A stretch of 64,000 nucleotides of DNA from assembly GCA_964617735.1 (NCBI GenBank), contig CAZTXT010000001.1:532776-596775 (forward strand), in the 5' to 3' direction. The position numbers were made by a program, and so were the translations under genes. The notes beneath the pieces are model-generated. The model was given only the letters and a program-made list of their open reading frames with translations, was not told where the DNA came from and searched no databases. This document shows, piece by piece, positions 8,661 through 37,525 of this stretch (its first letter is position 1; every line of letters begins with the position of its first letter). This DNA is from an uncultured Candidatus Saccharibacteria bacterium (lineage in GTDB: Bacteria > Patescibacteriota > Minisyncoccia > Phycocordibacterales > DSPV01).

Positions 8661-10370
8661 TTATTGTAAATAGCCGGGAGCATTGAGCGAGAGCCATTCG
8701 AAGAACTGCCGCATGACATAGAGCGCGCCAACCGTATTGTCATGCGGCCCTTTCTCCATCACCGCTGCAAACGCATAACGAGGATGTTCGTACGGAAAAA
8801 ATCCTTCTACCCACGAATTCACGAATTGTTTCTTGCTGCCGAGTTCTGCCGTACCGGTCTTTGCAGCGATTGCTACCTCAGGGATATCGAGATTCTTCGC
8901 CGTGCCGTAGAGCACCGCATCGCGCATTCCCTCCTTAACCACCGTAAGATCCTTCTGCGAGAGCCCGAGGTCGGTCGAGAAAGACCGGCTCTGATTGCCG
9001 TTGAGAAGCACGGTGGGCTCGAGGAGTTTCCCGCCATTGGCGAGCGCCGCGACGGCCCGCACAACCTGTATGGGAGTCACTTGCATGCCATACTGACCGA
9101 TAGCAGTGTTGTAGGTGTCTCCGATCCGCCAGATTTCTCCGTTGAAATGAGCCTTCTTCCAGTCGGGATCGGGAAGCGTGCCGGCTGTGCCAAGGAGATA
9201 ATTGTCACTCTCCGCCTGCCCGAATCCGAACAACTGCATGTACTTCTTTATATTGGCGATACCCAGGCCTTGCTGATCCTCAAATCCCCCGCCCACCTCG
9301 TAAAAATAAACGTCCGAAGAAACTGCGATAGCTTCGCGCATATCAACCCAGCCATGCGCTTTCCAATCGTTGAATACCGATTTCTTCTCGGGTGCATAGG
9401 GGTTAGGAATGGAAATTGAACCGGTGCTTAAGATCGCTTTCTTCGGATCGATGATGCCTTCGTTCAATACTCCGGCGGCGAGGAACGGCTTGACGATAGA
9501 GCCAGGCGTGTAGAGACCGGTCACCACACGATCCAAAAATGGCTGCCGTTTATCCGCTAAGTAGCCGTTGATGGCAGAGGCTTCCGTCCCTTCGGACATG
9601 ACCGTCGAGTCGAACTCGGGAAAACTGGTCATTGCGACAATCTCTCCTGTTTCAACATCCATAACGACCGCCCCACCACTCGCGAAGCCGTTCGAATCAG
9701 CAAGACTTTTGATATAGCCGTACAGGGCGCTCTGGAGCTTCGAGTCTATAGAGAGCACTACATTCATCCCGTAATGCGCGGGTTTGATTACGCTCTCAGA
9801 TTCAACTGCACCTAGGGCATTGCGCTCGGTTATCTTGGTGCCATTCTCGCCGGTAAGAAGATCGTTGTAGTACGCTTCGACTCCATCCTTTCCCGAATAA
9901 TCAAGACGGTAGTATACGCCGGAGGAATCTTTCTTCGGATAATTAACATAGCCGAGGAGGTGCGCAAGCCCTGCATCACTGCGGTACTCGCGAGAAGGAT
10001 ACTCGGGATGCTCCGTTGAGATCTTGTTGGAGACAAGCGTTACCTGATTGCGGTCCTGGATAAGCCCGCGCGGAGCAAAGATAGTAGTGGTCAAGAGACT
10101 GTTGCGCTCGCTTAATATCGAGTAAGCCTCCCCCTTCTTGACCTGCAGCACCCACGTTCGAGACAGGAGGGTCACGCAAATAAGGAAAAACGCTAGTCCG
10201 GCAAAAAGCATCGTCCGGCGCGAGATCGGCTTTTCGATCCTTCCTTCGAACTGGTAGGTATCGAAATTCGGCAGATTGCTCGAATCGAGAAAGATCTCGT
10301 CTGGCGCGATCTCATGCACCGATTTTCCGCTCAACCGTCGGTCATTCCTCCGACTGAAAAATCGCTTCAT
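8661..10370 (-). CDS. mrdA: penicillin-binding protein 2 (elongasome transpeptidase)
   Basis: Class B PBP with SIVKP (STxK-like), SSD and KTGTA motifs. Immediately downstream of mreBCD. Confidence 0.8.
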   Translation of the reverse strand: MKRFFSRRNDRRLSGKSVHEIAPDEIFLDSSNLPNFDTYQFEGRIEKPISRRTMLFAGLAFFLICVTLLSRTWVLQVKKGEAYSILSERNSLLTTTIFAPRGLIQDRNQVTLVSNKISTEHPEYPSREYRSDAGLAHLLGYVNYPKKDSSGVYYRLDYSGKDGVEAYYNDLLTGENGTKITERNALGAVESESVIKPAHYGMNVVLSIDSKLQSALYGYIKSLADSNGFASGGAVVMDVETGEIVAMTSFPEFDSTVMSEGTEASAINGYLADKRQPFLDRVVTGLYTPGSIVKPFLAAGVLNEGIIDPKKAILSTGSISIPNPYAPEKKSVFNDWKAHGWVDMREAIAVSSDVYFYEVGGGFEDQQGLGIANIKKYMQLFGFGQAESDNYLLGTAGTLPDPDWKKAHFNGEIWRIGDTYNTAIGQYGMQVTPIQVVRAVAALANGGKLLEPTVLLNGNQSRSFSTDLGLSQKDLTVVKEGMRDAVLYGTAKNLDIPEVAIAAKTGTAELGSKKQFVNSWVEGFFPYEHPRYAFAAVMEKGPHDNTVGALYVMRQFFEWLSLNAPGYLQ

Positions 10371-10424
10371 ATCGGTATCATACTTCAGGGTAAGGAATTT
10401 TCAAAAATCATGAACGATATCAAT

Positions 10425-10709
10425 TCAGTAAAATATCAGGCGCTTCTTGAGAAACGGAATGAGCAGTAAAAAAAGCAACGAGAGCGCCGTGAATGGAAAC
10501 GGGAATCCGGGGGCAAATGGAGGCGGCCCGTAGAGCATATCTGCGGCGAAGCAAACGCCGACACCTTCGTAAAATCGACTGAACGCGAGAAAACCCCCGA
10601 CTGAGAAGACCAGAATCAACCACCACGGTGCCATAAAAAGAAGCACTATCATAAGGACGATAAAGAGAGAGCGGAAGATGATTTGCCTGCTGTTTTGGCG
10701 GGGGCTCAT
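10425..10709 (-). CDS. mreD: rod shape-determining protein MreD-like membrane protein
   Basis: 94-aa polytopic membrane protein between mreC and mrdA. Start overlaps the mreC stop. Confidence 0.45.
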   Translation of the reverse strand: MSPRQNSRQIIFRSLFIVLMIVLLFMAPWWLILVFSVGGFLAFSRFYEGVGVCFAADMLYGPPPFAPGFPFPFTALSLLFLLLIPFLKKRLIFY

Positions 10710-11515
10710 GGAGCGTGGGGTGCGCCGGTCTTGATAAGCACGGTTCGCTGTTCAAAGATATTGACCGGAATGCGAAAACGCACCAGTTGTAAGAAATCAA
10801 CGTCTCGATGCTCGAGCGACTCGACGGCACCGAGCGATATCCGCTCCCGACCCGGCAGTACCACAATATCTCCCTTTGCCACGGGCGCCTCCTGCGGAAG
10901 CAGTGCCTCAAACGCCCCTCCACCCACGCCGTGCGCGGAAGCTTGCAAACCCTTTGTACCGATCAGGACCGTAACGTCGTTTGCAGGAGCAGAAAGCAAA
11001 GTCGCGCGGGAGAAATCTCTGAACACTTCGGTTATCGAGCCCAGCGCAACGCCTCCCAGAGAAGTGACCGTATCACCAAGACTCACTCCTGCATCCGCTC
11101 CTGCCTCGAGCACCAGCGTGTCATACGGCGAGAGCGGCGGACGCAACAGAACGTCCGCTAAAAGGTCACGGCCAGGACTTTTTTCAACCGAAGAGGTCGC
11201 CAGCCGCTCATTCTCCGGAAAACCGGAAGCGAGGAGCTCTTGCCGCGCAAGCTCCAATTCAGTACTAAGCCGCCGATTCTCTGCGGTGAGCGTTTCTTTA
11301 GAGACCAGATAATCGAAAAACCCCGAAAAAAAACCGGCGATCTCATCGCGCGTTCGCCCTAAAGGCGCAGACACGTTATAGATGATGGTCGGGAAAAACG
11401 ATGGCGCCAAGAGTGCAACGACGACGCATATGAAAAGCAGGAAGAGTGCGACATAGAAAGAACGCCCGCCGCGCCAGCGATGCAGATTACTGCTCGAGGG
11501 GAAGGTCCGCCTCAT
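10706..11515 (-). CDS. mreC: rod shape-determining protein MreC
   Basis: N-terminal TM, coiled coil, then beta-rich domain. Sits between mreB and mreD. Confidence 0.7.
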   Translation of the reverse strand: MRRTFPSSSNLHRWRGGRSFYVALFLLFICVVVALLAPSFFPTIIYNVSAPLGRTRDEIAGFFSGFFDYLVSKETLTAENRRLSTELELARQELLASGFPENERLATSSVEKSPGRDLLADVLLRPPLSPYDTLVLEAGADAGVSLGDTVTSLGGVALGSITEVFRDFSRATLLSAPANDVTVLIGTKGLQASAHGVGGGAFEALLPQEAPVAKGDIVVLPGRERISLGAVESLEHRDVDFLQLVRFRIPVNIFEQRTVLIKTGAPHAP

Positions 11516-12566
11516 ATTCGATGAGTGTTTCTTTATATCGCTCCATATCCTCGACGATTATCCCTGCGCCGCGCGCAACTGCGGTTAAGGGATCGTCGGC
11601 GACATGGACGGGGATTTTTAGGCACTGCTGTAAATACGGCGCGAGACCGCGCAGGAGCGCACCGCCCCCCACCAGATAGATTCCCCGCTGCATGACATCG
11701 GAGACAAGCTCTGGGGGCGTGGACTCGAGCACTTCGCGCGCAGCCTCGACGATACTATCCACTGACTGACCGATCGCTTCACGGACATCGGCATCAGTGA
11801 TAATCACTTCGCGCGGCAGTCCCGTGATAAGGTCTCTTCCTTTCACGGTCGTCTCAAGCGAGCTTCCCAGAGGCATCGCGGAGCCGATCGATATCTTTAT
11901 GTGCTCGGCAGTCTTTTCGCCGATAAGTATTTTGAATTCACTGCGGATATAGGCAATGATGTCGTTATTGAAATGATCCCCCGCTATTTTAAGGTTCTTG
12001 GACTTCACGATACCACCTAAACTAATGATCGCGATGTCCGTCGTGCCTCCGCCGATATCGATGACCATATTCCCCGTAGGTTCTTTGATGGGCAGGCGGA
12101 TTCCGACAGCGGCCGCCATCGGCTGCTCGACGATATGCACCTCGCGAGCGCCGCTGTTGCGCGTCGCGTCCCGAACCGCCCGCGACTCGACGTTAGTGAC
12201 ACCCGAAGGAACACCAACCACCACGCGCGGTCCCAAGATCTTTCGTGAATCCTGCTGAACGCGGCTGATGAGATACGCGATCATCTCCTCGGTCACTTCG
12301 AAATCAGAGATGACTCCCTCGAAGAGCGGCCGGATCGCGGCGATATGCCCGGGAGTACGACCGAGCATCGCCTTTGCTTGATTGCCTATCGCAACGACCT
12401 GTCCGGTCTTTTGATTGATGGCGACGACTGAAGGCTCATTGATGACGATTCCCTGCCCGCGCACATACACCAGCGTATTCGCGGTTCCGAGATCAATACC
12501 GAGATCGTGGCTAAAAAGCCGGTACAATTCTTCCAGCTTCTGCCTCAAATACGATCCTTTAAACAT
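11487..12566 (-). CDS. mreB: rod shape-determining protein MreB
   Basis: Actin-fold motifs GIDLGTANT, DIGGGTTD and GGGALL. Start placed at MFKGSYLRQ (12566); the ORF extends further upstream, but that would overlap proS. Confidence 0.85.
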   Translation of the reverse strand: MFKGSYLRQKLEELYRLFSHDLGIDLGTANTLVYVRGQGIVINEPSVVAINQKTGQVVAIGNQAKAMLGRTPGHIAAIRPLFEGVISDFEVTEEMIAYLISRVQQDSRKILGPRVVVGVPSGVTNVESRAVRDATRNSGAREVHIVEQPMAAAVGIRLPIKEPTGNMVIDIGGGTTDIAIISLGGIVKSKNLKIAGDHFNNDIIAYIRSEFKILIGEKTAEHIKISIGSAMPLGSSLETTVKGRDLITGLPREVIITDADVREAIGQSVDSIVEAAREVLESTPPELVSDVMQRGIYLVGGGALLRGLAPYLQQCLKIPVHVADDPLTAVARGAGIIVEDMERYKETLIEYEADLPLEQ

Positions 12567-13815
12567 GGGATTTGATGCTCGGCAGCAGTTTTTTAGACGG
12601 TATGAGTTCTGTTTTTCCCGAGCGGCGATTGAGCAGCTCAAATGAGTCCTTGGAAGCGTTCCGCGCGCTTGCGATGATGCGTAGAGGGATGCCGATGAGG
12701 TCGGCGTCGGCGAATTTCTCTCCGGCCCGAGCATCGCGATCATCAAAAAGGACATCGATTCCCGCCGCTGAAAGTTCGTTGTATATCTTCTCCGCCTCGG
12801 TACGAACAGCTGCCTCTTTCTCATCGAGCAGTATTAGATGCACCGAGAACGGGGTCAGGGTGCGCGGCCACAGGAGACTTCTCTCGTCCGAGAAAAGTTC
12901 GACAGCGACCCCCATCAATCGTGCAGGGCCGATACCGTAGCTTCCCATGTGGACTGGCCGCGTTTCGTTCTTCTCATCCACAAACTTGAGTCCCAACGCT
13001 TCTGAAAAACGCGTACCCAGATCGAAAATGTTACCGACTTCGACGGCTTTGAGGGCGCGGAGGCTCTTATTACCGCAAACGGGACAAACTTTCTGCTCCG
13101 CGATTATCTCATCATTGACAGCAACCGAGCATTTCTCACACAGGTGGATGGTATCCTCGCCCGCGTCGCAAACGGTCTGAAATTCATGCGAATATTTGCT
13201 GAAACTGCCCCCCGCAGCATAGGTCAGATACGTTTGCGCGCCGATCCCCGCTCGGTCGAACACCGTTTTGTATGCGGCTTTCATCGCTTCGTAGAACTCG
13301 GCATGCTCCTCTGCGTCTTTCGAGAACGAATAGAGGTCCTTCATTAAAAACTCCCGGGTCCGCATGAGACCGGATTTTGCGCGGGCTTCATTGCGGAACT
13401 TCGTCTGTATCTGATACGGATAGACCGGAAGATCGCGGAATGAGCGGATATGGTCGCGCATCAAGAGCGTCAGAGGCTCTTCATGAGTGAAGCCGAGCCC
13501 CAGCTCGCCTCCGCTGTTGAGCTTCGTCTTGAACCAATTGTCGACATCCCTCTCGCTCCAGCGGCCGGTTTTCTCCCATGTCTCTTTGTTCTGCAGAGTC
13601 GCGAGAAAGATCTCCTGCCCTCCCACGGCGTTCATTTCCCCCCGAATGATCCCGATGATTTTGTTGAGAACGCGCAAACCCAGCGGCAAAAACGAATAGA
13701 CGCCGGCCATTTCCTTGTGGATGAATCCGCCTTGAATCAAAAGCTTAGCGTTCTTTGCAGCCTCATCTTTAGGGACCTCTTTGCGTGTTTTGGTGAATAG
13801 CTCAGACTGGCGCAT
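12559..13815 (-). CDS. proS: proline--tRNA ligase (class II, lacking INS editing domain; Cys4 insertion)
   Basis: Class II motifs, a C-terminal anticodon-binding domain, and a Cys4 cluster CEKC...CPVCG between motifs 2 and 3 where the INS domain normally sits. Confidence 0.8.
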   Translation of the reverse strand: MRQSELFTKTRKEVPKDEAAKNAKLLIQGGFIHKEMAGVYSFLPLGLRVLNKIIGIIRGEMNAVGGQEIFLATLQNKETWEKTGRWSERDVDNWFKTKLNSGGELGLGFTHEEPLTLLMRDHIRSFRDLPVYPYQIQTKFRNEARAKSGLMRTREFLMKDLYSFSKDAEEHAEFYEAMKAAYKTVFDRAGIGAQTYLTYAAGGSFSKYSHEFQTVCDAGEDTIHLCEKCSVAVNDEIIAEQKVCPVCGNKSLRALKAVEVGNIFDLGTRFSEALGLKFVDEKNETRPVHMGSYGIGPARLMGVAVELFSDERSLLWPRTLTPFSVHLILLDEKEAAVRTEAEKIYNELSAAGIDVLFDDRDARAGEKFADADLIGIPLRIIASARNASKDSFELLNRRSGKTELIPSKKLLPSIKSHV

Positions 13816-16429: not shown

Positions 16430-17443
16430 TTATCGCTTCGCAATGATTGACTTCTTATACGCATCCAAGTGCTCGAGCGCGACCCCCGTCCCGCGGGCGA
16501 CGCAGAAGAGCGCATCCTTGGCAAGGGTTGCTTTCACGCCGGTGCGGCGAAAAACCAGTTCGGGAAAGTTGCGCAGCTGGGACGAACCGCCGGTCATGAT
16601 GATGCCGCGCTCAATGATATCCGCCGCAAGCTCGGGAGGAGTTTCCTGCAAAACATCCTTGATGGCCTTGATCATCTCACGCAATTCGCGGCTGATGGCC
16701 TTGACCACCTCGTTGGTCCGGAACTCGGCGCTCCGCGGAAGACCCGTGACGAAATCCCTGCCCTTCACCATCATCGCGATCTCTTCTTCCAGCGGTATCG
16801 CCGAGCCTATCGTTAGCTTTATCTCTTCCGCCATGCGATCCCCGATGGAGAGGTTGTATGTTTTCTTGAGATAATCGGCGATCGCCGAATCCATCCGGTT
16901 GCCAGCGCACTTGACCGAGTTGCAGGCGACAATGCCACCGAGAGAGATGACCGCGACATCCGTGGTCCCTCCGCCGATGTCCACCACCATATGCCCAACC
17001 GGTTCATGGATAGGGATGCCCGCGCCGATAGCGGCCAAGATCGGCTCTTTCACCACGAACGCGTTTTTCGCGCCAGCTCTGATGGCAGCCTCGATAACGG
17101 CGCGCCGTTCAGTGGAAGTCACCGAGGCGGGCACCGACACCATCACGTCAGGCTTCCAGATGTTCCAGCGGCCGAGCGCCTTGCCGATGAAATAACGTAA
17201 CATCGCCTCGGTCACCCGATAGTCGGCGATGACACCGTCTTTCATCGGCCGATAGGCAACAATGGAATCGGGGGTCTTCCCCACCATCTTCTTCGCCTCA
17301 ATGCCGACCGCAAGAATTTTGCGATCAACTTCAGAAACCGCCACTACGGATGGTTCGTTGAGTACGATACCCCTTCCCGGCGCGAAAACCAGGGTGTTCG
17401 CGGTTCCGAGGTCAATGCCCAACTTTGTAGAAAATAGAGCCAT
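16430..17443 (-). CDS. MreB/Mbl actin-like protein, second paralogue
   Basis: Motifs GIDLGTANT, DIGGGTTD and GGSS. Stand-alone, with its own terminator. Start placed at MALFSTKLGIDLGT. Confidence 0.8.
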   Translation of the reverse strand: MALFSTKLGIDLGTANTLVFAPGRGIVLNEPSVVAVSEVDRKILAVGIEAKKMVGKTPDSIVAYRPMKDGVIADYRVTEAMLRYFIGKALGRWNIWKPDVMVSVPASVTSTERRAVIEAAIRAGAKNAFVVKEPILAAIGAGIPIHEPVGHMVVDIGGGTTDVAVISLGGIVACNSVKCAGNRMDSAIADYLKKTYNLSIGDRMAEEIKLTIGSAIPLEEEIAMMVKGRDFVTGLPRSAEFRTNEVVKAISRELREMIKAIKDVLQETPPELAADIIERGIIMTGGSSQLRNFPELVFRRTGVKATLAKDALFCVARGTGVALEHLDAYKKSIIAKR

Positions 17444-17558: not shown

Positions 17559-19082
17559 ATGACTGTGACAGAAAAAAAGAAGCTCTCGGTCCTCGGTCAG
17601 CTCATCAAGAGCCTGCGGGAGGAACGTGCGATCACCCAATCGACATTCGCGAAAAAACTCGGCACGACGCAGAGCGCCGTCGCACGCATCGAGAGCGGGG
17701 AGCAGAACGTGAGCGCCGGAATCTTAAGCCGCATCTCGGACATTCTCGAAAAAGACGTCATTCAAGTGAACGACGGCGCCATGAACATCCAGATCGAGGG
17801 AGGCCATGAACTCTCGGGAACAGTCGTCACCAAAACTTCCAAGAACGCGGCGATGGGACTGCTGTGCGCTTCCCTGCTGAACCGCTCGGAAACGATCCTC
17901 GAGCATGTCCCCAGGATCGAAGAGGTCCATCGGATGGTGGAAGTGCTCGTAAGCATCGGGGTACAGGTCCGCTGGGACAACGACAATCTCATCATCAAGC
18001 CGCCGGAGAAGATTGCTCCAGAATCAATGGATCGGACCGCCGCACAAAAAACCCGCAGTGTCATCATGCTCACCGGACCCCTGATGCATCTGTTGCCGAA
18101 ATTCTCGCTGCCGCAACCCGGCGGCTGCAAGCTCGGCAGCCGCTCTATCCGTCCACACCTCTACGCGCTTGAGCGCTTGGGCGTCAAAATAACCACCCGG
18201 CGCGGAAGCCATGACGTGATCATCGGCCCTCCGAAAGATCGCGAGATAATCCTCTACGAATCAGGCGACACCGTGACCGAGAACATCCTTATGGCCACGG
18301 CAAAGCTTCCGGGAAAAACCGTAATCAAGTACGCCTCGGCGAATTATCAAATCCAGGAACTCTGCTACTTTCTCGAGAAGCTCGGCGTCACGATCGAGGG
18401 CATCGGCACCACGACCCTCACCGTAAATGGCATACCGGTCATCGACACGCCAGTGCGCTACAGCCTCGCCGAAGACCCCATCGAATCCATGTTCATGCTC
18501 GCAGCCGCTATCGTCACGCGCTCGAATATCACGATCAAGCGCTGCCCCATCGACTTTTTGGAGCTCGAATTGCTCAAGCTCAAAAAGATGGGTTTTAGAT
18601 ATAAACAGAGCAAACGCTATAAAGCTCTCAATGGCCGAACGAATTTGGTCGACCTAGAAACCTTACCGTCAAACCTCAACGCCCTCGAGGAGAAGATAGA
18701 CGCACGACCCTATCCCGGGCTCAACATAGACAACCTTCCTTTCTTTGCGGTCATCGCGACGCAGGCGAAGGGACAGACATTCATCCATGATTGGGTTTAC
18801 GAGGGACGTGCGATACACTACAAAGAGCTCGATAAGCTCGGCGCAGAGGTGATAGTGGCCGATCCGCACCGGGCGTATATAAACGGGCCCACGGCTCTTG
18901 CTGCTGCCGAAGTCATTTGTCCGCCGGCGCTACGGCCTGCAGCAATCATTTTGATCGGCATGCTCGCGGCAAAAGGGACTTCCATACTGCGTAACATCTA
19001 TTCGATAAATCGGGGATACGAAGACTTGGTAAAGCGGCTCAACGCATTGGGCGCAAAAATAAAGATACTAAGGAACCTGTAG
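17559..19082 (+). CDS. murA: UDP-N-acetylglucosamine 1-carboxyvinyltransferase with N-terminal XRE-type HTH domain
   Basis: Residues 1-65 form an HTH (QSTFAKKLGTTQSAVARIESGE). The remainder is the MurA/EPSP-synthase-fold enolpyruvyl transferase. TATACT at 17544-49 lies close to the ATG. Confidence 0.75.
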   Translation: MTVTEKKKLSVLGQLIKSLREERAITQSTFAKKLGTTQSAVARIESGEQNVSAGILSRISDILEKDVIQVNDGAMNIQIEGGHELSGTVVTKTSKNAAMGLLCASLLNRSETILEHVPRIEEVHRMVEVLVSIGVQVRWDNDNLIIKPPEKIAPESMDRTAAQKTRSVIMLTGPLMHLLPKFSLPQPGGCKLGSRSIRPHLYALERLGVKITTRRGSHDVIIGPPKDREIILYESGDTVTENILMATAKLPGKTVIKYASANYQIQELCYFLEKLGVTIEGIGTTTLTVNGIPVIDTPVRYSLAEDPIESMFMLAAAIVTRSNITIKRCPIDFLELELLKLKKMGFRYKQSKRYKALNGRTNLVDLETLPSNLNALEEKIDARPYPGLNIDNLPFFAVIATQAKGQTFIHDWVYEGRAIHYKELDKLGAEVIVADPHRAYINGPTALAAAEVICPPALRPAAIILIGMLAAKGTSILRNIYSINRGYEDLVKRLNALGAKIKILRNL

Positions 19083-19085
19083 TCT

Positions 19086-19871
19086 ATGCAAACAAGAAAG
19101 AACACTGTGATCTGGATACTGACCTTCGCCGCGATAGTGGTCGCGATTTTGATCATCGCCGGAGTCATAAAAACTCCGCTTAGTCCTCACGGAAAGATAA
19201 CAATCGAAGGACTCGATGCGAATGAGAAAGTATTCGTGGATAACGTGCCCCAAAGCATCTCCTTCAATAAAAGGGACAATGCGACCATAAGCGCTGCCGC
19301 AGGCATCCGCGATGTCTTGGTATCGCGTGACGGATACTGGCCATACCTCAAACAGATCAGCGTCGAGGCGGGAAAAACTGCCTCGATACATCCCTTTCTT
19401 TTCCCCAAGCAGCCAGATTTTGAAGGGATTGATAGTCGGGATCCCGAATACTATGCGCTCATCGCATTGATCAAAAAACAAACTATCCCGAGCGAACCGC
19501 ACCTCTTGGGATCGTCGGAAGGTACGGTGACCATCTGGAAAGAGGGCTCGGCGCTCAAGGCTAAATGGATCGGGTCAGGTCCTATCGCCTCTTTTCTCTG
19601 TCCGGAAGGCGACGCGGGAACTTGTCAGAGCGGCATAACCTTCTTCAACGCGAACGAGCCGGTACAAGCGGTGGCATTCTGGAGAGATCGGCCGGATGTG
19701 GCCATCGTCGCTTCGGGAGAAAAGATATTCGCGCTCGAACTCGACCTCCGGCCCATACAAAACTTTCAACTGCTCTACCAGGGCGTAAGACCTGTCTTCG
19801 CGCTAACACCAACGGGAACGCTCATCGTGCTCGACGACGGACATCTTTACTCTCTTGCTCTTGCGGAATAA
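19086..19871 (+). CDS. membrane-anchored PEGA-domain protein
   Basis: N-terminal TM followed by PEGA-like beta-strands (KITIEGL...VFVDNVP...VLVSRDGYWPY). Confidence 0.45.
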   Translation: MQTRKNTVIWILTFAAIVVAILIIAGVIKTPLSPHGKITIEGLDANEKVFVDNVPQSISFNKRDNATISAAAGIRDVLVSRDGYWPYLKQISVEAGKTASIHPFLFPKQPDFEGIDSRDPEYYALIALIKKQTIPSEPHLLGSSEGTVTIWKEGSALKAKWIGSGPIASFLCPEGDAGTCQSGITFFNANEPVQAVAFWRDRPDVAIVASGEKIFALELDLRPIQNFQLLYQGVRPVFALTPTGTLIVLDDGHLYSLALAE

Positions 19872-19924
19872 TTTTAATACCTAACCGGCGCTCTGGTCCG
19901 CTGTCGATACCCTCGAGCCTCTTT

Positions 19925-21817
19925 GTAGCCTCCATGAAAATCGTTACCGTCACAACGATAGACCGGAATCATCAGAAAGGCCCGCTGACCTACTTTACCG
20001 CTAAGGATGTCTCGGTCGGCGACGTGGTCGCCGTGCCAGTACGGAAAAAGACCGTCTATGGGCTTGTGGAGGGCCTCGAAGAAGCATCGAAAGAAAAAGC
20101 GGCGATAAAATCTTCGGCATTCGGTCTCAAAAAGATCTCAAAGGTCGCCACTCCCCCTCCCTTCTCTATGTCATTCGTCGCGGCTGCGCGAATGACTGCA
20201 GAATATTACGCGACTTCGACCGGAGCAGTACTCTCTGCCGCGACGCCTGATCGCCTGATACATCGCCTGGGATTTCAAAAGGCCCCGATCGAAGAGAACA
20301 ACATCGCTCCGAATGTCGCGGTGCTCCAGGCGAATGACGCAGACCGCTATGCGCATTATCGGTCCTGCGTGCGTGAGACATTTAGTCACGTACGATCGGT
20401 ACTGATACTGGTACCAACGATACAAGATGCTGACACGATATCGAGCATTCTATCAAAAGGGATCGAACCCTACGTCCATATTCTGCACAGCATGCGATCG
20501 GTAAAAGAAATCAATACGTCGCTTGCTGCGCTCAACAACGAGCAACACCCGCTTCTCATCATCGCAACACCCGGCTTTATGGCGCTCGCTCCGAAAGGGA
20601 TCGAGGTCATCATCATCGAGCGCGAGAATTCTTCGGCATACAAACAAATGGTGAAGCCGCAGATCGACTTTCGTTTTCTGGCGCGCGCATTCGCGCAAAA
20701 AGCCGGATTACGCCTCATCATGGGAGATGCCGTACTCTCGCTCGAGACGCTGAATGCGGTTTCGGAGGGACTATACGCCGAGCTCATACCTCTACCGTGG
20801 AGAATACCGTCGAAAGCAAGCGGAGAACTGGTCGACATGAAAGCGTACAAACCGGACCTCCGCGGAGTCTCCGAAGCCCTAAGTCCGGAGCTCAAAGCCC
20901 TGATCAAACGAACTCGTGAGAGCGGCGATCGGACGTTCATTTTCGCGGGTCGCAAAGGCCTCTCTCCGGCAACGATATGCGGGGACTGCGGGGAGTTGGT
21001 GCTCTGCGAGCGATGCGGGACAACGCTCACCCTTCACAGCAGCAAGAACCAAAAACGCTTCTACATTTGCCGACGCTGCGGATTGAAAAAAGAACCGACA
21101 TTGCGATGCAAAAACTGTGCGAGCTGGAAACTCACGACGCTTGGCATTGGAAGCGAATTGGTCGAAGCCCAAGTGGCTAAAGCCTTCCCCGATCTCACGC
21201 TCATAAGGCTCGACAAAGAGTCGGCCAAAAACCGTACCGAGGTGCTGAAGCTCGTTGAGAAATTCTATGATTCTCCCCGAAGCGTCCTGATCGGCACCGA
21301 ACTCGCGCTCGGATATCTGCAAAAGCCCGTGGGCGCTGTTGCAGTGGCATCCCTCGATGAATTCTTCTCTATCCCCGACTTTCGAATACACGAGCGGATA
21401 TTCTATCTTCTGTTGAGATTACGCGGTCTTGCCGAAAAGAATTTTCTCGTGCAAACCCGTCATGGCGAGCTACCATTGATCACTGCCGCGCTTGAAGGAG
21501 ATCTCAGCGATTTCTATCACCGCGAATATGAGATCCGAAAAATACTCTCCTATCCCCCATTCTCCGTCATAATATCGATCTCGGCGCCTGCAGAACCGCA
21601 TGCGACGGAAAGATTCAGAGAGCTGGCGAGACAATTCCGACCTTTCATTTTCGATACATTTCCCCTGCTCATCGCAAAAGGAAAAGGAAAGCCAGTGATC
21701 TCCGGAGTCGCAAAGATCCCGCGGAGCGCTTGGCCGAACCCGCGAGTGTTAGCTATACTGCATACACTCCCGCCTTCCGATATGGTCATCGTCGACCCCG
21801 AAAACTTCATCTCATGA
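19925..21817 (+). CDS. priA: primosomal protein N' (PriA)-like, Walker A/B degenerate
   Basis: N-terminal 3'-DNA-binding domain, helicase-core similarity (ILVPTI, HSMRS), and a Cys-rich zinc region CGDCG...CERCG...CRRCG...CKNC. Has ANDADRY in place of GxGKT and IIIEREN in place of DEEH. Confidence 0.6.
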   Translation, partial: VASMKIVTVTTIDRNHQKGPLTYFTAKDVSVGDVVAVPVRKKTVYGLVEGLEEASKEKAAIKSSAFGLKKISKVATPPPFSMSFVAAARMTAEYYATSTGAVLSAATPDRLIHRLGFQKAPIEENNIAPNVAVLQANDADRYAHYRSCVRETFSHVRSVLILVPTIQDADTISSILSKGIEPYVHILHSMRSVKEINTSLAALNNEQHPLLIIATPGFMALAPKGIEVIIIERENSSAYKQMVKPQIDFRFLARAFAQKAGLRLIMGDAVLSLETLNAVSEGLYAELIPLPWRIPSKASGELVDMKAYKPDLRGVSEALSPELKALIKRTRESGDRTFIFAGRKGLSPATICGDCGELVLCERCGTTLTLHSSKNQKRFYICRRCGLKKEPTLRCKNCASWKLTTLGIGSELVEAQVAKAFPDLTLIRLDKESAKNRTEVLKLVEKFYDSPRSVLIGTELALGYLQKPVGAVAVASLDEFFSIPDFRIHERIFYLLLRLRGLAEKNFLVQTRHGELPLITAALEGDLSDFYHREYEIRKILSYPPFSVIISISAPAEPHATERFRELARQFRPFIFDTFPLLIAKGKGKPVISGVAKIPRSAWPNPRVLAILHTLPPSDMVIVDPENFIS

Positions 21818-22338
21818 CAACCATCGTACAAAAAGAAGATCCTGTCTTACGAGAAAAAGCGGTTGAGGTGCCGAAAGAGTCCCTGTCCTCGGCCCGCATC
21901 GTACGGATCATCAAAGCCATGCAGCAGGCGCTTGAATCGCAGGCTGACGGCGTCGCTATCGCGGCGCCGCAGATCGGAGAGAACCTCCGGATATTCATCG
22001 TCTCTAAACGGGCGTTCCAACTTCAGGGAGAGAAGTCGGAGGAATTGAACGAATCACCCGCGCATGATCTCGTCTTCATCAATCCGCGCCTGATGAAACT
22101 TTCCCGAAAGAAAGAATGGGTTGAGGAAGGATGTCTCTCGGTCCGATGGCTCTATGGGCACGTTCAGAGGTCTGTCAAAGCATCCGTCCGGGCATACGAC
22201 GAGCGGGGAAAGATATTCGAGAGGGGCGGCAGCGGCATTCTTGCACAGATCTTCCAGCACGAAATGGATCATCTCGACGGCATGCTTTTCATCGATAAAG
22301 CGAAGGATATCCGCGAAGTCCTTCCTGAAGAATCGTAA
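21814..22338 (+). CDS. def: peptide deformylase
   Basis: GxGxAAxQ-like, EGCLS and QHEMDHLDG motifs. Overlaps the priA stop (ATGA). Confidence 0.85.
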   Translation: MTTIVQKEDPVLREKAVEVPKESLSSARIVRIIKAMQQALESQADGVAIAAPQIGENLRIFIVSKRAFQLQGEKSEELNESPAHDLVFINPRLMKLSRKKEWVEEGCLSVRWLYGHVQRSVKASVRAYDERGKIFERGGSGILAQIFQHEMDHLDGMLFIDKAKDIREVLPEES

Positions 22339-22339
22339 T

Positions 22340-23188
22340 ATGCAAAAACCGCGCATTGTCTTTTTTGGGAACTCGAAATACTCGGTCATCGTCGAACGTG
22401 CTCTCCACGAAGCATTTGGATTGGCGTTGGTGGTTACTATCCCCGACCGTCTGAATTCGCGCAAAGAGAAGGTCGAAAGCCCCGTAAAGCAGTTCGCACA
22501 GACGCAGGGCATCGATGTCATCGAAGTAGATAAACTCTCCTCCGATACGATCGAGCAGATTAAAAAATATAGACCCGATTTTCTCGTCGTCGCCGACTAT
22601 GGACTCATCCTTCCTCGGTCTTTGCTAAGAGTTCCTGTTTTTGCGCCACTCAATGTCCATCACTCTCTGCTTCCAGAGCACCGCGGGCCTTCCCCTGCCC
22701 CTGCTGCGATCCTAAGCGGCCAAAAAGAAACGGGGGTGAGCATCATCGTCATGAATGAGCGCGTTGACGCAGGCGATGTGCTCGCCCAAATCCACTATAC
22801 CCTTCCCGAGGACGCGACTACCGATCATCTGCTCAATGAGCTCAATACCCTCGGTGCGAATGCGCTGATCGATACCATCAACGCGTATCGGGCGGGAACC
22901 GTGCACCCTATCCCTCAAGACGAAACTAAAGCTAGCCATACTTCATTGCTCTCAAGAGAGGATGGCGAGATAAATCTTCATGACAGTCCCGAGCTTAATT
23001 GGAGGAAAATACGCGCTTTCGGAACTTGGCCGGGAACGTATTTCATTGCAGTTCGCGGCACGAAGCGCGTGCGCGTAAAGATCGCGCACGCGCGCTTCCA
23101 CGACGGAATGCTTACTATCGAGCGCGTAATCCCCGAAAATAAAAAGGAGATGTCTTTCGAAGATTTCGAACGCGGCTATTTGCCTTGA
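22340..23188 (+). CDS. fmt: methionyl-tRNA formyltransferase
   Basis: Formyl-transferase N-domain with the HxSLLPxxRG motif (HHSLLPEHRG) and a C-terminal domain. Adjacent to def. Confidence 0.85.
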   Translation: MQKPRIVFFGNSKYSVIVERALHEAFGLALVVTIPDRLNSRKEKVESPVKQFAQTQGIDVIEVDKLSSDTIEQIKKYRPDFLVVADYGLILPRSLLRVPVFAPLNVHHSLLPEHRGPSPAPAAILSGQKETGVSIIVMNERVDAGDVLAQIHYTLPEDATTDHLLNELNTLGANALIDTINAYRAGTVHPIPQDETKASHTSLLSREDGEINLHDSPELNWRKIRAFGTWPGTYFIAVRGTKRVRVKIAHARFHDGMLTIERVIPENKKEMSFEDFERGYLP

Positions 23189-32569: not shown

Positions 32570-33080
32570 GAACTACATAATAGCATAAGGGCCGTCCCGA
32601 CGTACGTCGGGACGGCCCGTTCTCTGCTTGGATTATCGCCGAGCTCCATGTGCTCAAACTGACCCGGCACCGATTCATTCCCAGAACGCGCTTTGCATGG
32701 AAGGAAACGCGACACTATGATTGCTAAAGAGGTTCGGAGGACGGCGTTGCCGTTTCCGCTTGAAATTGTGCAGGTAAACCTCGTACGGAGAGAGGGATCC
32801 GAACTTGAGTTTCGAATCGAACACGCGCTGTTTCTTTATTCGGTCAAGTCTCGCGTCAATGAGGTCAAGCTCAGTGTAATGCTTTATAAGGAACGTGATC
32901 CTCGATGTGTCTGTATGCCTTTTCGGGGGCATGAATTTCCAGAATTCCTGGAGAACAAAAGCCGATAACGGCTCGAATGAGGGTATACTCATATCTCCCT
33001 CAAGTATACCGGACCGATCGGACTGTGCCAAAAATAACCGGCTTGCTATACTAACGGATGAATACGCTAACGCCAAAACG

Positions 33081-33983
33081 GTGAACCGAAAGAGTTTGTT
33101 CCTATTTATAGCGCTAGGTGTCATACTGATGATCACATACGCGGTGTTCATCGGAGGCGGACGCTTGGTAGTGCTCAATCCGCAGGGAACCATCAGTCTT
33201 GAAGAGCGCAATCTTATCGCAACGGCGGTGCTCTTGATGCTTACCATCGTCATACCCGCTCTGGTGATGACCTTCTATTTCGCGTGGAGATACCGTGCGG
33301 GCAATACGAAAGAGATATATGCGCCGGATTGGTCGGGGAATCCGCGCATCCAGCTTATCTGGTGGGTCGTGCCAGCTGCGGTCATTTCCATCCTCGCTCT
33401 GATCACCTGGCGTGGCACTCACGCCCTCGACCCATACAAACCCATCGCTTCCGATGAAAAGCCACTGACCATACAAGTCGTTGCCCTTCGTTGGAAATGG
33501 CTTTTTATTTACCCTGACCTCAATATCGCGACGGTAAACACTCTTGAGCTTCCCGTCGGCACGCCGCTTAATTTTGAGCTTACGGCTGATGCGCCCATGA
33601 GTTCTTTCTGGATACCAGCGTTGGGCGGCCAGATGTATGCGATGGCAGGTATGACAACGCAGCTTCATCTCTTAGCCAATGCACCGGGAACATTCAAAGG
33701 CTCCAATGCCGAGATCAGTGGCGCTGGATTTTCAAGTATGACGTTTCCGGTAAAGGCGCTGTCGCGCGATGATTTCAATGTTTGGGTCTTGACTGCACGC
33801 GCATCGGGACGAGTGCTCAACGCAGATGAATACGCAACCGTGGCGAAACCGAGCGAGAATGCGCCGATACAGTATTATTCTTCCGTCCAAGACGACCTGT
33901 ATACTATGATAATGATGAGCTATATGATGCCGATGCCGGAGATGACCGGAAGCACAGAACCAACAGCGGATAGCCATTATTGA
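33081..33983 (+). CDS. cyoA: cytochrome bo3 ubiquinol oxidase subunit II
   Basis: Close to the E. coli CyoA pattern (WKWLFIYPD, IPALGGQMYAMAGMTTQLHLLANAPGTF). CuA Cys ligands are absent, as expected for quinol oxidases. GTG start inferred. Confidence 0.8.
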   Translation: MNRKSLFLFIALGVILMITYAVFIGGGRLVVLNPQGTISLEERNLIATAVLLMLTIVIPALVMTFYFAWRYRAGNTKEIYAPDWSGNPRIQLIWWVVPAAVISILALITWRGTHALDPYKPIASDEKPLTIQVVALRWKWLFIYPDLNIATVNTLELPVGTPLNFELTADAPMSSFWIPALGGQMYAMAGMTTQLHLLANAPGTFKGSNAEISGAGFSSMTFPVKALSRDDFNVWVLTARASGRVLNADEYATVAKPSENAPIQYYSSVQDDLYTMIMMSYMMPMPEMTGSTEPTADSHY

Positions 33984-34002
33984 ATATGATGCGTGCACAC
34001 AC

Positions 34003-35979
34003 ATGAACATTCTCTTTGGAAAACTCACTCCCGCGGCGCTTCCCCACGAATGGTTCACGATCGGCGGAACCATCGCGATGGCCGCCACCGGTCTCTGCAT
34101 CGCCTTCCTTTTGACCTATTACAAGCGGTGGAAATGGCTTTGGAGCGAATGGTTGACCTCAACCGACCCTAAGAGGATCGGTATCATGTACATGGTGGTC
34201 GCCTCGGCGATGTTCGTGCGCGGCGCACTCGATGCCGTGATGATCTGGCTCCAACAATCTCTCGCCTCCGGCTCATCGCACGGCTACCTCTCGGCAGACC
34301 ATTTTCAGCAGATATTCACCGCGCACGGCAATATCATGGTCTTCTTCGTTACGATGGGATTCCTCTTCGGATTGATGAACCTGATACTGCCGCTTCAGAT
34401 CGGTGCTCGCGACCTCGCATTCCCCTTCCTTAATTCTTTGAGCTTCTGGCTCTACGTCGCTGGCGCGCTCCTCATCAATATGTTCTTCGTCGCGGGAGGC
34501 GAATTTGCCGCAACGGGGTGGCTCGCGGTTGCTCCGCTCTCGGGCATCCAATACAGCCCGGGGGTCGGGGTGGATTATTGGATATGGAGCCTGCAGGTCT
34601 CCGGACTCGGAACATTGTTAGGCGGCATCAATTTTTTGGTTACTATCATTAAAATGCGGGCGCCCGGCATGACGCTGATGAAAATGCCTCTCTTCACATG
34701 GACATCGCTGTGCAGCATGGTCCTTATCGTCTCGGTCTTCCCTATTCTCGCCGCCACGATCGCGCTCCTCTTCCTCGATCGGTTCTTTGGCTTGCATTTC
34801 TTCACCTCAAGCTTTGGCGGGAACCCCATGATGTACATCAATCTCATCTGGTCATGGGGACATCCGGAAGTCTATATTCTCATCCTTCCTGCGTTCGGAG
34901 TTTTCAGCGAGGTAGTCTCTACGTTCTCGCAGAAACGCCTCTTCGGCTACACCTCGATGGTCGCCGCCGCGATCGGCATCACGCTTCTCTCTCTCCTGGT
35001 CTGGCTGCACCACTTCTTTACGATGGGAGCTGGCGCTGACGTCAACGCGTTCTTCGGCATCATGACCATGTTCATTTCAGTACCTACCGGCCTCCAGGTC
35101 TTCAACTGGATCTGTACGATGTACAGAGGCAAGATCGTCTTTTCGACCCCGATGTACTGGTTCCTCGGTTTCGTCGGCACCTTCACGTTCGGCGGCATGG
35201 CGGGAGTCCTCATGGCAATCCCTCCGGCCGATTTCCAACTGCATAACAGTTTATTCCTCGTCGCCCACTTCCACACGATGATCATCGGAGGCGCGCTCTT
35301 CGGAATATTCGCCGGCTTTACCTATTGGTTCCCCAAAGTCATGGGGTTTCGGCTCAATGAACGCCTCGGTAAATATGCCTTTTGGTGTTGGCTCGTCGGC
35401 TTCTTCGTATCATTCGTCCCCCTCTATATTTTGGGGCTGATGGGCGCGACCCGCCGCCTCGACCACTACGATGCCTCGACAGGCTGGCAACCCCTTTTTA
35501 TGATCGCACTCCTCGGCTCTCTGATCATCACCGTTGGGGTTATCTTCCAGTTGGTCCAAATCATCGTGAGCATCAAACAGCGGAAACTGAATACCGATAC
35601 GACGGGCGATCCATGGAATGGGCGGACGCTTGAATGGTCAACCGCATCCCCCGCACCAGCTTACAATTTTGCATTGATACCACGCGTGGAGAGCCGCGAT
35701 GCATTTTGGGAAATGAAAAAAGGCAAGAAACCGCGACTCTCGGGCGCTGATTTTAAGGACATCCTGATGCCCAAAAACACTCCGATCGGCATTTATATCG
35801 CAGGATTCGTATTTCTCTTCGGCTTCGCGGCCGTCTGGCATATCATTTGGCTTATGATCGCAGGTATCATCGGGGCGATCGCCTGCGCCGTGATCCGCAT
35901 GTTCGACGAGGAAACCGAATACACTATCCCCGCGAGCGAGATCGCGAAAATAGAAGCCCAAAGAACTGTTCATGGATAA
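34003..35979 (+). CDS. cyoB: cytochrome bo3 ubiquinol oxidase subunit I
   Basis: 658 aa heme-copper oxidase subunit I with conserved His ligands (HPEVYILILPAFG, HHFFTMG). Confidence 0.9.
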   Translation: MNILFGKLTPAALPHEWFTIGGTIAMAATGLCIAFLLTYYKRWKWLWSEWLTSTDPKRIGIMYMVVASAMFVRGALDAVMIWLQQSLASGSSHGYLSADHFQQIFTAHGNIMVFFVTMGFLFGLMNLILPLQIGARDLAFPFLNSLSFWLYVAGALLINMFFVAGGEFAATGWLAVAPLSGIQYSPGVGVDYWIWSLQVSGLGTLLGGINFLVTIIKMRAPGMTLMKMPLFTWTSLCSMVLIVSVFPILAATIALLFLDRFFGLHFFTSSFGGNPMMYINLIWSWGHPEVYILILPAFGVFSEVVSTFSQKRLFGYTSMVAAAIGITLLSLLVWLHHFFTMGAGADVNAFFGIMTMFISVPTGLQVFNWICTMYRGKIVFSTPMYWFLGFVGTFTFGGMAGVLMAIPPADFQLHNSLFLVAHFHTMIIGGALFGIFAGFTYWFPKVMGFRLNERLGKYAFWCWLVGFFVSFVPLYILGLMGATRRLDHYDASTGWQPLFMIALLGSLIITVGVIFQLVQIIVSIKQRKLNTDTTGDPWNGRTLEWSTASPAPAYNFALIPRVESRDAFWEMKKGKKPRLSGADFKDILMPKNTPIGIYIAGFVFLFGFAAVWHIIWLMIAGIIGAIACAVIRMFDEETEYTIPASEIAKIEAQRTVHG

Positions 35980-36541
35980 GTACGACCAGGGCGAAAAAAA
36001 TATCTTCGGTTTCTGGGTCTATCTGATGACCGACCTCTTAATGTTCGGCGTGCTGTTCGCGGCGTACGCGGTTCTGCGCACGAATACCTTCGGCGGTCCG
36101 GGAGGTCGTGATCTCTTCAATCTTCCATTTGCGCTCACCGAAACGCTCATACTCCTGACGTCGAGCTTCACCTGCGGCCTCTCTATGCTTGCTGCGCGTG
36201 AGCATCGGATGAGCGGGGTGGTCACGTGGCTTGGCACTACGTTCATTTTGGGAATCACCTTCCTCGTCCTGGAACTGAAAGAATTCTCGCACCTCGTAAG
36301 CGACGGAAACGGACCGCAGCACAGCGCTTTTCTGTCCTCATTCTTCACGCTCGTGGGAACGCACGGCTTGCACATCACCTTCGGCCTCTTGTTCATCACA
36401 ATACTGCTTGTCCAAGCATCACGACAAGGTCTCACCGAAGCGATGGTGAATCGGCTCGCACGCATGAGCATGTTCTGGCATTTTCTCGATGTCGTATGGA
36501 TATTCATATTTACCATCGTTTACCTTTCAGCCTTCGTTTAG
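35972..36541 (+). CDS. cyoC: cytochrome bo3 ubiquinol oxidase subunit III
   Basis: IFGFWVYLMTDLLMFGVLFAAYAVL matches the CyoC N-terminus. Five TM helices. Confidence 0.85.
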   Translation: MDKYDQGEKNIFGFWVYLMTDLLMFGVLFAAYAVLRTNTFGGPGGRDLFNLPFALTETLILLTSSFTCGLSMLAAREHRMSGVVTWLGTTFILGITFLVLELKEFSHLVSDGNGPQHSAFLSSFFTLVGTHGLHITFGLLFITILLVQASRQGLTEAMVNRLARMSMFWHFLDVVWIFIFTIVYLSAFV

Positions 36542-36555
36542 TACCGATCAAGAAC

Positions 36556-36915
36556 ATGGAGACACCGAAAGAAAACCAGAAACTCACGCTATCCTATATC
36601 ATAGGGTTCATCGCTTCCCTTGTGCTGACACTGGTCGCGTATTTTCTGGTCGCTGGTCATCGGTTCGAGGGCGGCGTATTACTATCAGCGATCCTTGGCC
36701 TGGCGATAATCCAGCTTTTGGTGCAGCTGATCTGTTTCCTACATATCGGACACGAGACCGGACCTCGATGGAACCTCGCCGCGCTCATCTCCACCCTCTC
36801 CGTCATTGGTATCGTCGTGGTCGGGTCGCTGTGGATCATGGCGCATCTCAACTACAACATGACACCAACGGAGGTTGATTCGTACGTGATGCACCAGGAA
36901 GGAATGCAGAAATAA
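36556..36915 (+). CDS. cyoD: cytochrome bo3 ubiquinol oxidase subunit IV
   Basis: 119 aa with three TM helices. Sits between cyoC and cyoE. Confidence 0.75.
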   Translation: METPKENQKLTLSYIIGFIASLVLTLVAYFLVAGHRFEGGVLLSAILGLAIIQLLVQLICFLHIGHETGPRWNLAALISTLSVIGIVVVGSLWIMAHLNYNMTPTEVDSYVMHQEGMQK

Positions 36916-36988
36916 AAAAGCTCGCACCAGAGGTACGAGCAGTTAAACATGCATAGAGTGTCCTTTCTCCTAAAGTTGTTTAAGTCTT

Positions 36989-37396
36989 TTAGTCAGGAAT
37001 CTCGACAACGCTTCCGGCGCTTCGAAATGCTCGGCGCAAAAAGCGTTCTCTCTTCTCAGCTGCCACACGGGGCAAGAGGCCACGAACCTGATAGCATAAC
37101 CAAATGAGTTTGGCTCCACCCTCCCTTTTCTTGAAGTGATGAGCCAATTTGATTATATCCTCGATGAGATCCGGAGACTCGCACAGAACTTTCCGTGCCA
37201 AGTCTTTGAACTCACTGATGGATGTGTGTCCTTGAATCAGAAACATCCGTTCTGATTTGTTGCCCTTCCGAGCAAGTTGTCTTGCAACATCTTCGCGCTC
37301 CTTTAACATTCGCGCTTGATCTGCTAACACCTGGCTCTTTTCTTCGTCCGTGATTAACCCGACTTTGTTCAATGCATCAGCTAATGAGGTAGACAT
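36989..37396 (-). CDS. hypothetical protein
   Basis: 135-aa ORF with no recognised motif. Confidence 0.35.
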   Translation of the reverse strand: MSTSLADALNKVGLITDEEKSQVLADQARMLKEREDVARQLARKGNKSERMFLIQGHTSISEFKDLARKVLCESPDLIEDIIKLAHHFKKREGGAKLIWLCYQVRGLLPRVAAEKRERFLRRAFRSAGSVVEIPD

Positions 37397-37525
37397 AAAC
37401 AGTATTTTTGGTGTTCTTTATCATGGATCCGCTAGCAGAAACTAGCTTCTCCAAATCCAATAGCACATTAACACAACATACGATGTATTGTCAACATCTC
37501 TAAAACGGCCTATTTCCTATATAAT

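Follow-up and report, generated by a model that had tools for sequence, protein, structure and literature searches.

The subject of this study is a gene for a homologue of the replication restart helicase PriA, located at positions 19934..21817 (+) of a 64,000-nucleotide stretch of contig CAZTXT010000001.1 (assembly GCA_964617735.1), which is called the window throughout and which was deposited under the name of an uncultured Candidatus Saccharibacteria bacterium. The 627 amino acid product appears, from its sequence and predicted structure, to have lost ATP binding and hydrolysis, and it is probably a natural PriA pseudohelicase, that is, an adaptor that would bind the fork and recruit the replicative helicase without ATP. 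Sequence, structural modelling and analogy with characterized PriA proteins all point in this direction. The best explanation of the gene, held with the same good but incomplete confidence as the reading as a whole, is that it is the PriA orthologue of a member of the Paceibacteria/Parcubacteria-type Patescibacteria (Candidate Phyla Radiation, CPR). A first-pass annotation of the same DNA had proposed an ATPase-less PriA that probably still works as a fork scaffold; homology, the predicted fold, the conserved substitutions and the operon context lend support to that proposal, which is extended here by two further losses, that of motifs III and VI and that of the winged-helix domain.

Identification of the PriA Homologue

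The coding sequence ends in a TGA stop codon, and its true start is almost certainly the ATG at position 19934, because all homologues begin there with M-[KNY]-[IL]; the N-terminus of the protein in question reads MKIVTV.... An in-frame GTG lies three codons upstream, at 19925, and had been taken as the start in the first-pass annotation, but the starts of the homologues speak for the ATG. The open reading frame (ORF) given in the program-made ORF list is longer (19565-21817, 750 amino acids) and overstates the protein, since 123 upstream codons precede the real start. Over these codons (19565-19933, +) the priA frame stays open, and part of them is shared with the end of the upstream gene, which is read in a different frame.

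The assignment of the coding sequence to PriA draws on profile searches, on sequence searches of the PDB, and on a predicted structure and its comparison with known ones. PF17764, the 3′-DNA-binding domain of PriA, is the only Pfam model above threshold for the 627-residue protein (residues 15-105, E = 2.4e-09, 37.4 bits against a cutoff of 22.7), which bears out the earlier claim that the N-terminal 3′-DNA-binding domain (3′BD) is kept. The models DEAD, ResIII, Helicase_C, Zn_ribbon_PriA and PriA_C stayed below threshold in the Pfam scan of this protein, yet the same DEAD, ResIII and Helicase_C models do detect canonical PriAs. The NCBIfam model TIGR00595 (priA) matched with 7e-62 and 209.6 bits, which is under its equivalog cutoff of 230.35, and all PRK05580 sub-models scored far under their own cutoffs. 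When the sequences of the PDB were searched with phmmer, the PriA proteins of Klebsiella pneumoniae and Escherichia coli were recovered over residues 141-569, with E values from 2e-40 to 6e-38.

An AlphaFold2 model, built from an alignment of 119 sequences, reached a mean predicted local distance difference test (pLDDT) score of 90.7 and a predicted template modelling (TM) score of 0.90. The nine best Foldseek matches of this model in the PDB are all PriA (E values 1e-40 to 1e-28, TM 0.68-0.78), and they include the fork-bound E. coli PriA 8fak (E = 1e-40, TM 0.77), the K. pneumoniae PriA 4nl4 and an engineered winged-helix deletion of E. coli PriA, 6dcr (TM 0.77/0.76); the next family after PriA is Mfd, at merely 6e-10. 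By sequence and model, the protein has the fold and the domain order of PriA: the 3′BD, RecA-like lobe 1, lobe 2 with a Cys-rich region (CRR) inserted that would hold two zinc ions, and a probable C-terminal domain (CTD).

For comparison at the level of single residues, E. coli PriA was taken from NC_000913 and aligned with the family, and K. pneumoniae PriA was compared through the HMMER alignment. A global MAFFT alignment placed the 3′BD of the family onto the winged-helix region of E. coli PriA, and the N-terminal 110 residues were aligned separately instead. The 3′BD occupies residues 1-105 (19934..20248, +), and in its pocket the equivalent of E. coli Tyr18, the stacking Tyr of the 3′-end pocket, is invariant, while the position of K61 holds Lys or Arg throughout the family. 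In E. coli PriA the 3′BD is followed by a winged-helix domain at residues 109-181 (PMC5778457); here, a linker of residues 106-126 (20249..20311, +) stands in its place. According to the AlphaFold2 model, the helices of the 3′BD stop at residue 109 and β1 of lobe 1 begins at residue 127, with a pLDDT of 58-78 in between. The winged-helix domain, which has ~75-90 amino acids elsewhere, is predicted to be absent because merely ~20 poorly ordered residues join the 3′BD to lobe 1.

RecA-like lobe 1, whose nucleotide site is predicted to be dead, spans residues 127-300 (20312..20833, +). The CRR follows at 20978..21118 (+) and consists of two predicted zinc sites and a β-hairpin, which is longer by three residues. 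Its four CxxC pairs, which had already been recognized in the first-pass annotation, are CGDC, CERC, CRRC and CKNC (C349/352, C358/361, C379/382 and C392/395), and they align with CHDC, CPRC, CHHC and CPSC of E. coli PriA; each of the eight Cys residues is conserved in the family, either without exception or to at least 90%. The putative CTD (residues 511-627; 21464..21814, +), a domain that is S10-like in PriA, is a region of confident AlphaFold2 prediction, where Pfam PriA_C remains below threshold, the HMMER alignment extends to K. pneumoniae residue 672, and the full-length Foldseek TM score normalized to the query is 0.77.

Loss of the ATPase Motifs

Four of the helicase motifs of PriA are lost or replaced in this protein. 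The former motif I (Walker A), GVTGSGKT in E. coli PriA, reads QANDADRY (20327..20350, +; alignment to E. coli PriA), and R138 stands in the position of the catalytic K230. In the AlphaFold2 model β1 consists of residues 127-132, and the phosphate-binding loop would be cut to a two-residue turn, because the next helix already begins at D135. The former motif II (Walker B) reads EREN in place of DEEH (20618..20629, +; HMMER alignment to K. pneumoniae PriA), and the former motif III reads GDA(V) in place of GSA(T) (20723..20731, +; alignments). Of motif VI, QVAGRAGR in E. coli, there is only a remnant, LRLRGLAEK (21413..21439, +), with a deletion of five amino acids that is common to all members of the family, whereas the canonical proteins P0380-P0382 keep QV[AS]GRAGR. 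On motifs II to VI, the E. coli alignment is in agreement with the HMMER alignment of K. pneumoniae PriA.

The remaining motifs have been retained to different degrees. Motif Ia, (M)VPEI in E. coli and (L)VPTI here, is partly kept, and motif Ic, (I)GTRSA in E. coli and (I)ATPGF here, is weakly kept. The motif IV region, FAGRKGLSP (20942..20968, +), partly retains FLNRRGFAP of E. coli PriA in the alignment, and its R340, G342 and P345 are invariant across the family. The motif V region, LIGTELALG (21287..21313, +), likewise partly retains LIGTQMLAKG, with G454, T455 and E456 conserved.

The strings from which the first-pass annotation had recognized the helicase core are in place (ILVPTI at residues 158-163, HSMRS at 185-189, LIIATPGF at 208-215), and so are the two substituted motifs, ANDADRY at residues 133-139 and IEREN at 228-232, which align to GVTGSGKT and DEEH as had been proposed. 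Alignment to PriA sequences and structures confirmed these positions and placed an intact GxGKT or DExH nowhere else; when the whole 627-residue protein was scanned, neither G..GK[ST] nor DE.[HD] occurred at any position. Tetrapeptides of the type G.GK[ST] or DExH/D do occur in a few homologues, at non-homologous positions, and were rejected as motifs that arose by chance. Taken together, the sequence and the model suggest that ATP binding and hydrolysis have been lost and that the protein is a natural pseudohelicase.

Conservation within the Family

The degenerate motifs are a property of a whole protein family. The family counts given below pool 119 homologues, the loci of 80 GTDB species, 149 sequences from a search of cluster representatives and 110 from a divergent seed; residue states were counted in the 355 full-length members of the pooled set, and the counts for GTDB loci refer to the best 80 of the 495 genomes in which a relative was found. 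In the first homologue search, 119 proteins among the matches listed were 37-50% identical to the query and all had the same degenerate motifs; Pfam gives PF17764 alone or nothing for them, and where they are named the names are Taylorbacteria, Zambryskibacteria, Paceibacterota and Patescibacteria. A scan with two family-specific peptides found a relative in 495 GTDB species-representative genomes. The best 80 loci belong to Taylor-, Zambryski- and Campbellbacteria, Parcubacteria, Paceibacterota and generically labelled metagenome-assembled genomes (MAGs), and no Walker A motif was found in the orthologues at these 80 loci.

Two further searches show how sharply this family is set apart. Lobe 1 alone (residues 120-300), searched against 1.84 billion representatives at 50% identity, matched 847 proteins at E ≤ 1e-3 and 523 at E ≤ 1e-10, and because so few proteins (847) matched, canonical PriAs must lie beneath significance with this query. 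Among the sequences from this search the position of K230 holds Arg in 147/149 and that of S356 holds Asp in 142/149; two G.GK[ST] strings in them are non-homologous and due to chance. The search from the divergent member P0163, which is 30% identical to the query, was followed to the end of its tail; it returned family members down to 210 bits, and then, after a gap, three canonical PriAs at 110-74 bits. These three have the full Pfam set and intact GVTGSGKT, DEEH, GSAT and GRAGR motifs, and the nearest of them, P0380, is of Bacilli type and lies outside the CPR.

The replacements in the former ATP site follow a pattern that is shared by nearly all members. Whereas Walker A at motif I is present in 0/355 full-length members, the position of G229 (E. 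coli numbering) is Asp or Glu in 339/355, and that of K230 is Arg in 353/355. In the former Walker B, E321 has become Arg, Lys or His (303/355), E322 is kept (348/355) and H323 has become Ser or Asn (311/355); in motif III, S356 is replaced by Asp in 343/355. Thirty-seven alignment columns are invariant, all CRR Cys among them, and judged from the alignment the protein is under clear purifying selection. Mean conservation is 0.67 in lobe 1 and 0.59-0.69 in the other domains, against 0.36 in the linker. Since the replacements are conserved and the constraint on lobe 1 equals that on the other domains, the former ATP site has not drifted but is rebuilt as a new, selected constellation.

The family is poorly visible in current databases. 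Annotations of its members include '3′ DNA-binding domain-containing protein', 'PriA 3primeBD protein' and 'hypothetical protein', and Pfam finds nothing in some of them (P0002, P0322 and P0378 are examples of these annotations). Because many members are named 'hypothetical protein' or merely '3′BD domain-containing protein', surveys could wrongly score CPR bacteria either as being without a restart helicase or as having a normal one. A related observation concerns taxon names: GTDB records with the Paceibacteria-type gene are often titled 'uncultured Candidatus Saccharibacteria', and one is titled 'Victivallales' (e.g., loci L004, L006 and L032); these titles look like generic or wrong taxon labels.

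Proposed Function and Alternatives

What could a PriA that does not use ATP do at a fork? The modules of fork recognition (the stacking Tyr, the two lobes, the CRR and the probable CTD) are retained, and for this reason an ATP-independent adaptor of forks and D-loops is suggested. In such a mechanism the 3′BD, with its Tyr pocket kept, would bind abandoned forks and D-loops together with the lobes, the CRR and the CTD, and nucleotide would play no part in the binding. The bound protein would then be a landing pad for the replicative helicase, which could be recruited directly, comparable to the interaction of PriA and DnaB in Deinococcus radiodurans, or through a partner. Its action would be equivalent to that of E. 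coli PriA K230R or K230A in the helicase-independent PriA-PriB pathway, and forks with a duplex lagging arm would need a different enzyme to open them or would fall outside the PriA route. Both fork binding and helicase recruitment are functions that we infer from sequence, model and analogy.

Work on E. coli PriA shows that the helicase activity is dispensable for part of its function. The priA300 mutant (K230R) is without ATPase, is near wild-type and is proficient in PriA-PriB restart, and helicase activity is needed just in some routes, namely PriA-PriC and phage Mu (PMC5778457). DnaB loading in vitro was achieved with PriA K230A, and the ATPase is dispensable in vivo (PMC10175261). The first-pass annotation had concluded that, with the ATPase lost, restart would follow another mechanism or draw on the ATPase of a partner; in view of these mutants and of D. 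radiodurans PriA, neither is required.

More speculatively, the acidic pseudo-P-loop, the Arg at K230, the basic residue at E321 and the Asp at S356 may form salt bridges that fill the former nucleotide pocket and staple it. The net acidity of the P-loop equivalent is 2.5 in members with a basic residue at position 321 and 0.9 in those with an acidic one (n = 13), a coupling of charges that hints, weakly, at a compensating salt-bridge network. An extended proposal would be that at least 495 species genomes of Paceibacteria type restart replication with a permanently nucleotide-free PriA without a winged helix, that the salt-bridge staple locks both lobes in one conformation, that fork recognition and direct helicase recruitment are ancestral and sufficient, and that the loss occurred independently of that in Deinococcus-Thermus. 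We put this extended proposal forward tentatively, and regard it as more doubtful than probable in its entirety.

Several points weigh against the interpretation of the protein as a fork-binding adaptor. First, the pocket of the 3′BD has changed, as D17 is replaced by Ser or Thr and G37 by an invariant Arg, and recognition of the 3′ end may differ accordingly. Second, the winged-helix domain is missing and the aromatic-rich loop is remodelled, from WRYHARD in E. coli to P-x-[IY]-D-x-R-x in the family, so that fork specificity may differ from that of E. coli PriA. Third, the charge coupling is based on the 13 counter-examples mentioned above, which are phylogenetically non-independent. Fourth, Pfam scans of the 64-kb window revealed no genes for DnaB, a loader, PriB or DnaT, and the search for an intact second PriA or a dedicated partner covered 64 kb of a genome of ~675 kb. 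Finally, the loss of the ATPase is read from the sequence and from a predicted structure.

Some of these points would also fit an orthologue that has been repurposed from replisome reloading and now acts as a branched-DNA sensor, as an anti-recombination factor or in another structural role. The missing winged helix, the remodelled aromatic-rich loop and the changed 3′BD pocket could all be read in this way, and so could the lack of known primosome partners among the genes seen nearby; repair repertoires, moreover, are reduced in CPR bacteria. We nevertheless consider such a shift unlikely, although it is the alternative that survives best, because the elements that in E. coli PriA touch the fork and make up the pore for the lagging strand (3′BD, HD1, HD2, CRR and CTD; PMC10175261) are, by sequence and model, retained and conserved here, and D. 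radiodurans PriA provides a precedent in which fork and DnaB binding are kept.

The chances are slightly smaller again that the protein is a neofunctionalized paralogue and that a canonical, ATPase-active PriA encoded elsewhere in the genome carries out restart. Room for such a second gene is left by the window, which covers ~10% of the source genome, and the sharp separation of the family from canonical PriAs would be in keeping with a paralogue. However, there was no second PriA-like ORF in the 64-kb window, and each of the 80 loci of ~12 kb gave one PriA match; the genomes are very small (contigs of ~0.6-1 Mb), and the canonical matches of the family-seeded searches were of Bacilli type only, none of them from the CPR. 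The full domain order of PriA is kept, and the position in front of def and fmt is deeply conserved in the family, both of which are at odds with a gene that has taken up a new function beside the original one.

A cryptic ATPase, working through non-canonical residues or through a second site, is very improbable. It is true that the Arg at the K230 position and the Glu at the E322 position are nearly invariant, and that E. coli PriA has been proposed to have another, weak site for nucleotides (PMC5778457), but K230R by itself abolishes the ATPase of E. coli PriA, and here none of the three P-loop glycines is left, acidic or other residues having taken their places, what remains of the loop is the N-terminus of a helix, the Ser of motif III has become Asp and the arginine-finger segment of motif VI is deleted. 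The Pfam helicase models, which recognize canonical PriAs and are blind to this protein, argue in the same direction. An artefact of sequencing or assembly, or a pseudogene in decay, in favour of which there is nothing beyond the unusual motifs, is refuted by the intact ORF, the confident predicted fold, the many invariant columns, the translational coupling to the essential def gene and the recurrence of the substitutions in independently assembled sequences, with more than 350 homologues and 495 species-level genomes, a survey that had been suggested in the first-pass annotation and that excludes sequencing error. An ATP-independent, fork-binding PriA adaptor is the interpretation that we retain.

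Genomic Context

The priA-like gene is followed by def, encoding peptide deformylase (21814..22338, +; Pep_deformylase 2.6e-41), and fmt, encoding methionyl-tRNA formyltransferase (22340..23188, +; Formyl_trans_N 4e-30 and Formyl_trans_C). The ATG of def (21814-21816) overlaps the TGA of priA (21815-21817) in an ATGA, and the ATG of fmt at 22340 lies one nucleotide past the TAA of def; this spacing supports the co-transcription of the three genes that had been proposed. A scan for promoters and terminators around the operon gave results no better than those from shuffled sequences.

The gene order recurs among relatives as mreB(-), a fusion of a helix-turn-helix (HTH) domain with murA, a variable small gene, priA, def, fmt and hpf(-). 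At the 80 loci, def was found downstream in 55/80 and fmt in 51/80, and murA and mreB upstream in 73/80 and 67/80, respectively. The same order surrounds the gene for P0378, the most divergent member found, which is itself without any Pfam match. The earlier statement that priA often stands with def and fmt holds for this family with respect to def, but the canonical loci differ: the order is cytR-priA-rpmE in E. coli, rpmE-priA in one MAG and dnaJ-priA-DUF285 in a Bacilli-type lineage. A literature search on such a linkage in canonical loci yielded nothing of use. For Bacillus subtilis, we take the order to be priA-def-fmt.

In the window, the HTH(XRE)-MurA fusion lies at 17568..19082 (+) and combines HTH_3 (residues 13-63) with EPSP_synthase. 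The same fusion precedes priA in a relative that is highly divergent (locus L085, 4328-5830), and it is conserved in the clade. Between murA and priA there is an ORF of 261 amino acids (19086-19871, +) with an N-terminal hydrophobic helix and without Pfam matches; a homologue is detectable at the same position in just 15/80 related loci, which points to a fast-evolving or variable gene.

Other genes in the window provide a wider view of this genome. Among those related to DNA metabolism are a holB-like gene and a gene for an AddA-like protein of 981 amino acids (59074-62019, -) with UvrD helicase N and C domains and a C-terminal PD-(D/E)XK nuclease; together with priA, the latter accounts for all the helicase-type genes seen in the window. 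A cluster resembling haem-copper quinol oxidases (32880-38389, +) consists of COX2 with COX_ARM (32880-33980, +), COX1 (33946-35976, +; 5e-142), COX4_pro (36202-36912, +) and a UbiA/CyoE-like prenyltransferase (37472-38386, +); genomes of Patescibacteria type do not usually encode a respiratory oxidase. Two MreB paralogues, MreC and two PBP2-type transpeptidases (11487-12830, 16430-17440, 10709-11557, 2537-4243 and 8661-10397, all -) give this small genome a complete rod-shape/elongasome set, and one of the MreB paralogues has an N-terminal extension of ~100 amino acids in its stop-to-stop ORF. Finally, an ORF of 1306 amino acids (49209-53126, +) has a Kre9/KNH Ig-like match and otherwise only a sub-threshold match to Peptidase_M64; its product is probably a large surface protein.

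Comparison with Known PriA Proteins

Compared with the canonical PriAs of E. coli and K. pneumoniae (4NL4, 6DGD and 8FAK), the protein shares the 3′BD, the two RecA lobes, the CRR of lobe 2 with its four CxxC pairs and, probably, the CTD. The fold agrees at a TM of 0.77, and motifs IV (GRxG) and V (GTE/Q) are partly kept. On the other hand, Walker A, DEEH, SAT, GRAGR and the winged helix are all missing, and the protein is ~100 amino acids shorter. In terms of domain composition it corresponds to E. coli PriA without the winged helix (6DCR), which is among the best structural matches, but 6DCR is an engineered deletion that keeps the ATPase motifs.

The priA300 mutant of E. coli shares with the family the replacement of the catalytic Lys by Arg, and primosome assembly and the PriA-PriB pathway are still functional with K230R and K230A. 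K230R, K230A and K230D are, however, laboratory mutants with one changed site in a helicase that is intact in all other respects and has PriB, DnaT and DnaC as partners, whereas the CPR protein has lost four motifs. The existence of such a protein supports the view that the indispensable role of PriA is structure-specific fork recognition and helicase recruitment rather than unwinding, and structural and biochemical studies would gain from it a PriA that is minimal by nature.

The closest natural counterpart is the PriA of the Deinococcus-Thermus group. D. radiodurans PriA has a Walker A Lys changed to Arg and a poor Walker B, is without ATPase or helicase activity, binds single-stranded DNA (215 nM) and fork DNA (108 nM) and interacts with DnaB (PMC4504706, Lopper 2015), and a review in Nucleic Acids Research describes the helicase activity of PriA as conserved 'except in Deinococcus'. 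The Patescibacteria family has in common with it the change of the Walker A Lys to Arg, a degenerate Walker B (here E-[RKH]-E-[SN]) and a presumed role in fork binding and helicase recruitment. The differences are as clear: poor matches in Deinococcus-Thermus PriA were reported in motifs I and II only (PMC4504706), while the Patescibacteria protein has an acidic P-loop, a changed motif III and a deleted motif VI, and the winged helix is absent. Furthermore, Deinococcus PriA has been assayed biochemically, whereas the Patescibacteria protein is known here from its sequence and predicted structure. Both the phylum and the residue states differ, and on these grounds the two losses may have been separate. 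A full-text literature search returned no description of an ATPase-dead PriA family in Patescibacteria, the one match concerning another phylum. The concept of a PriA without ATPase activity is already known from Deinococcus, and the Patescibacteria family is a second case, more eroded and larger.

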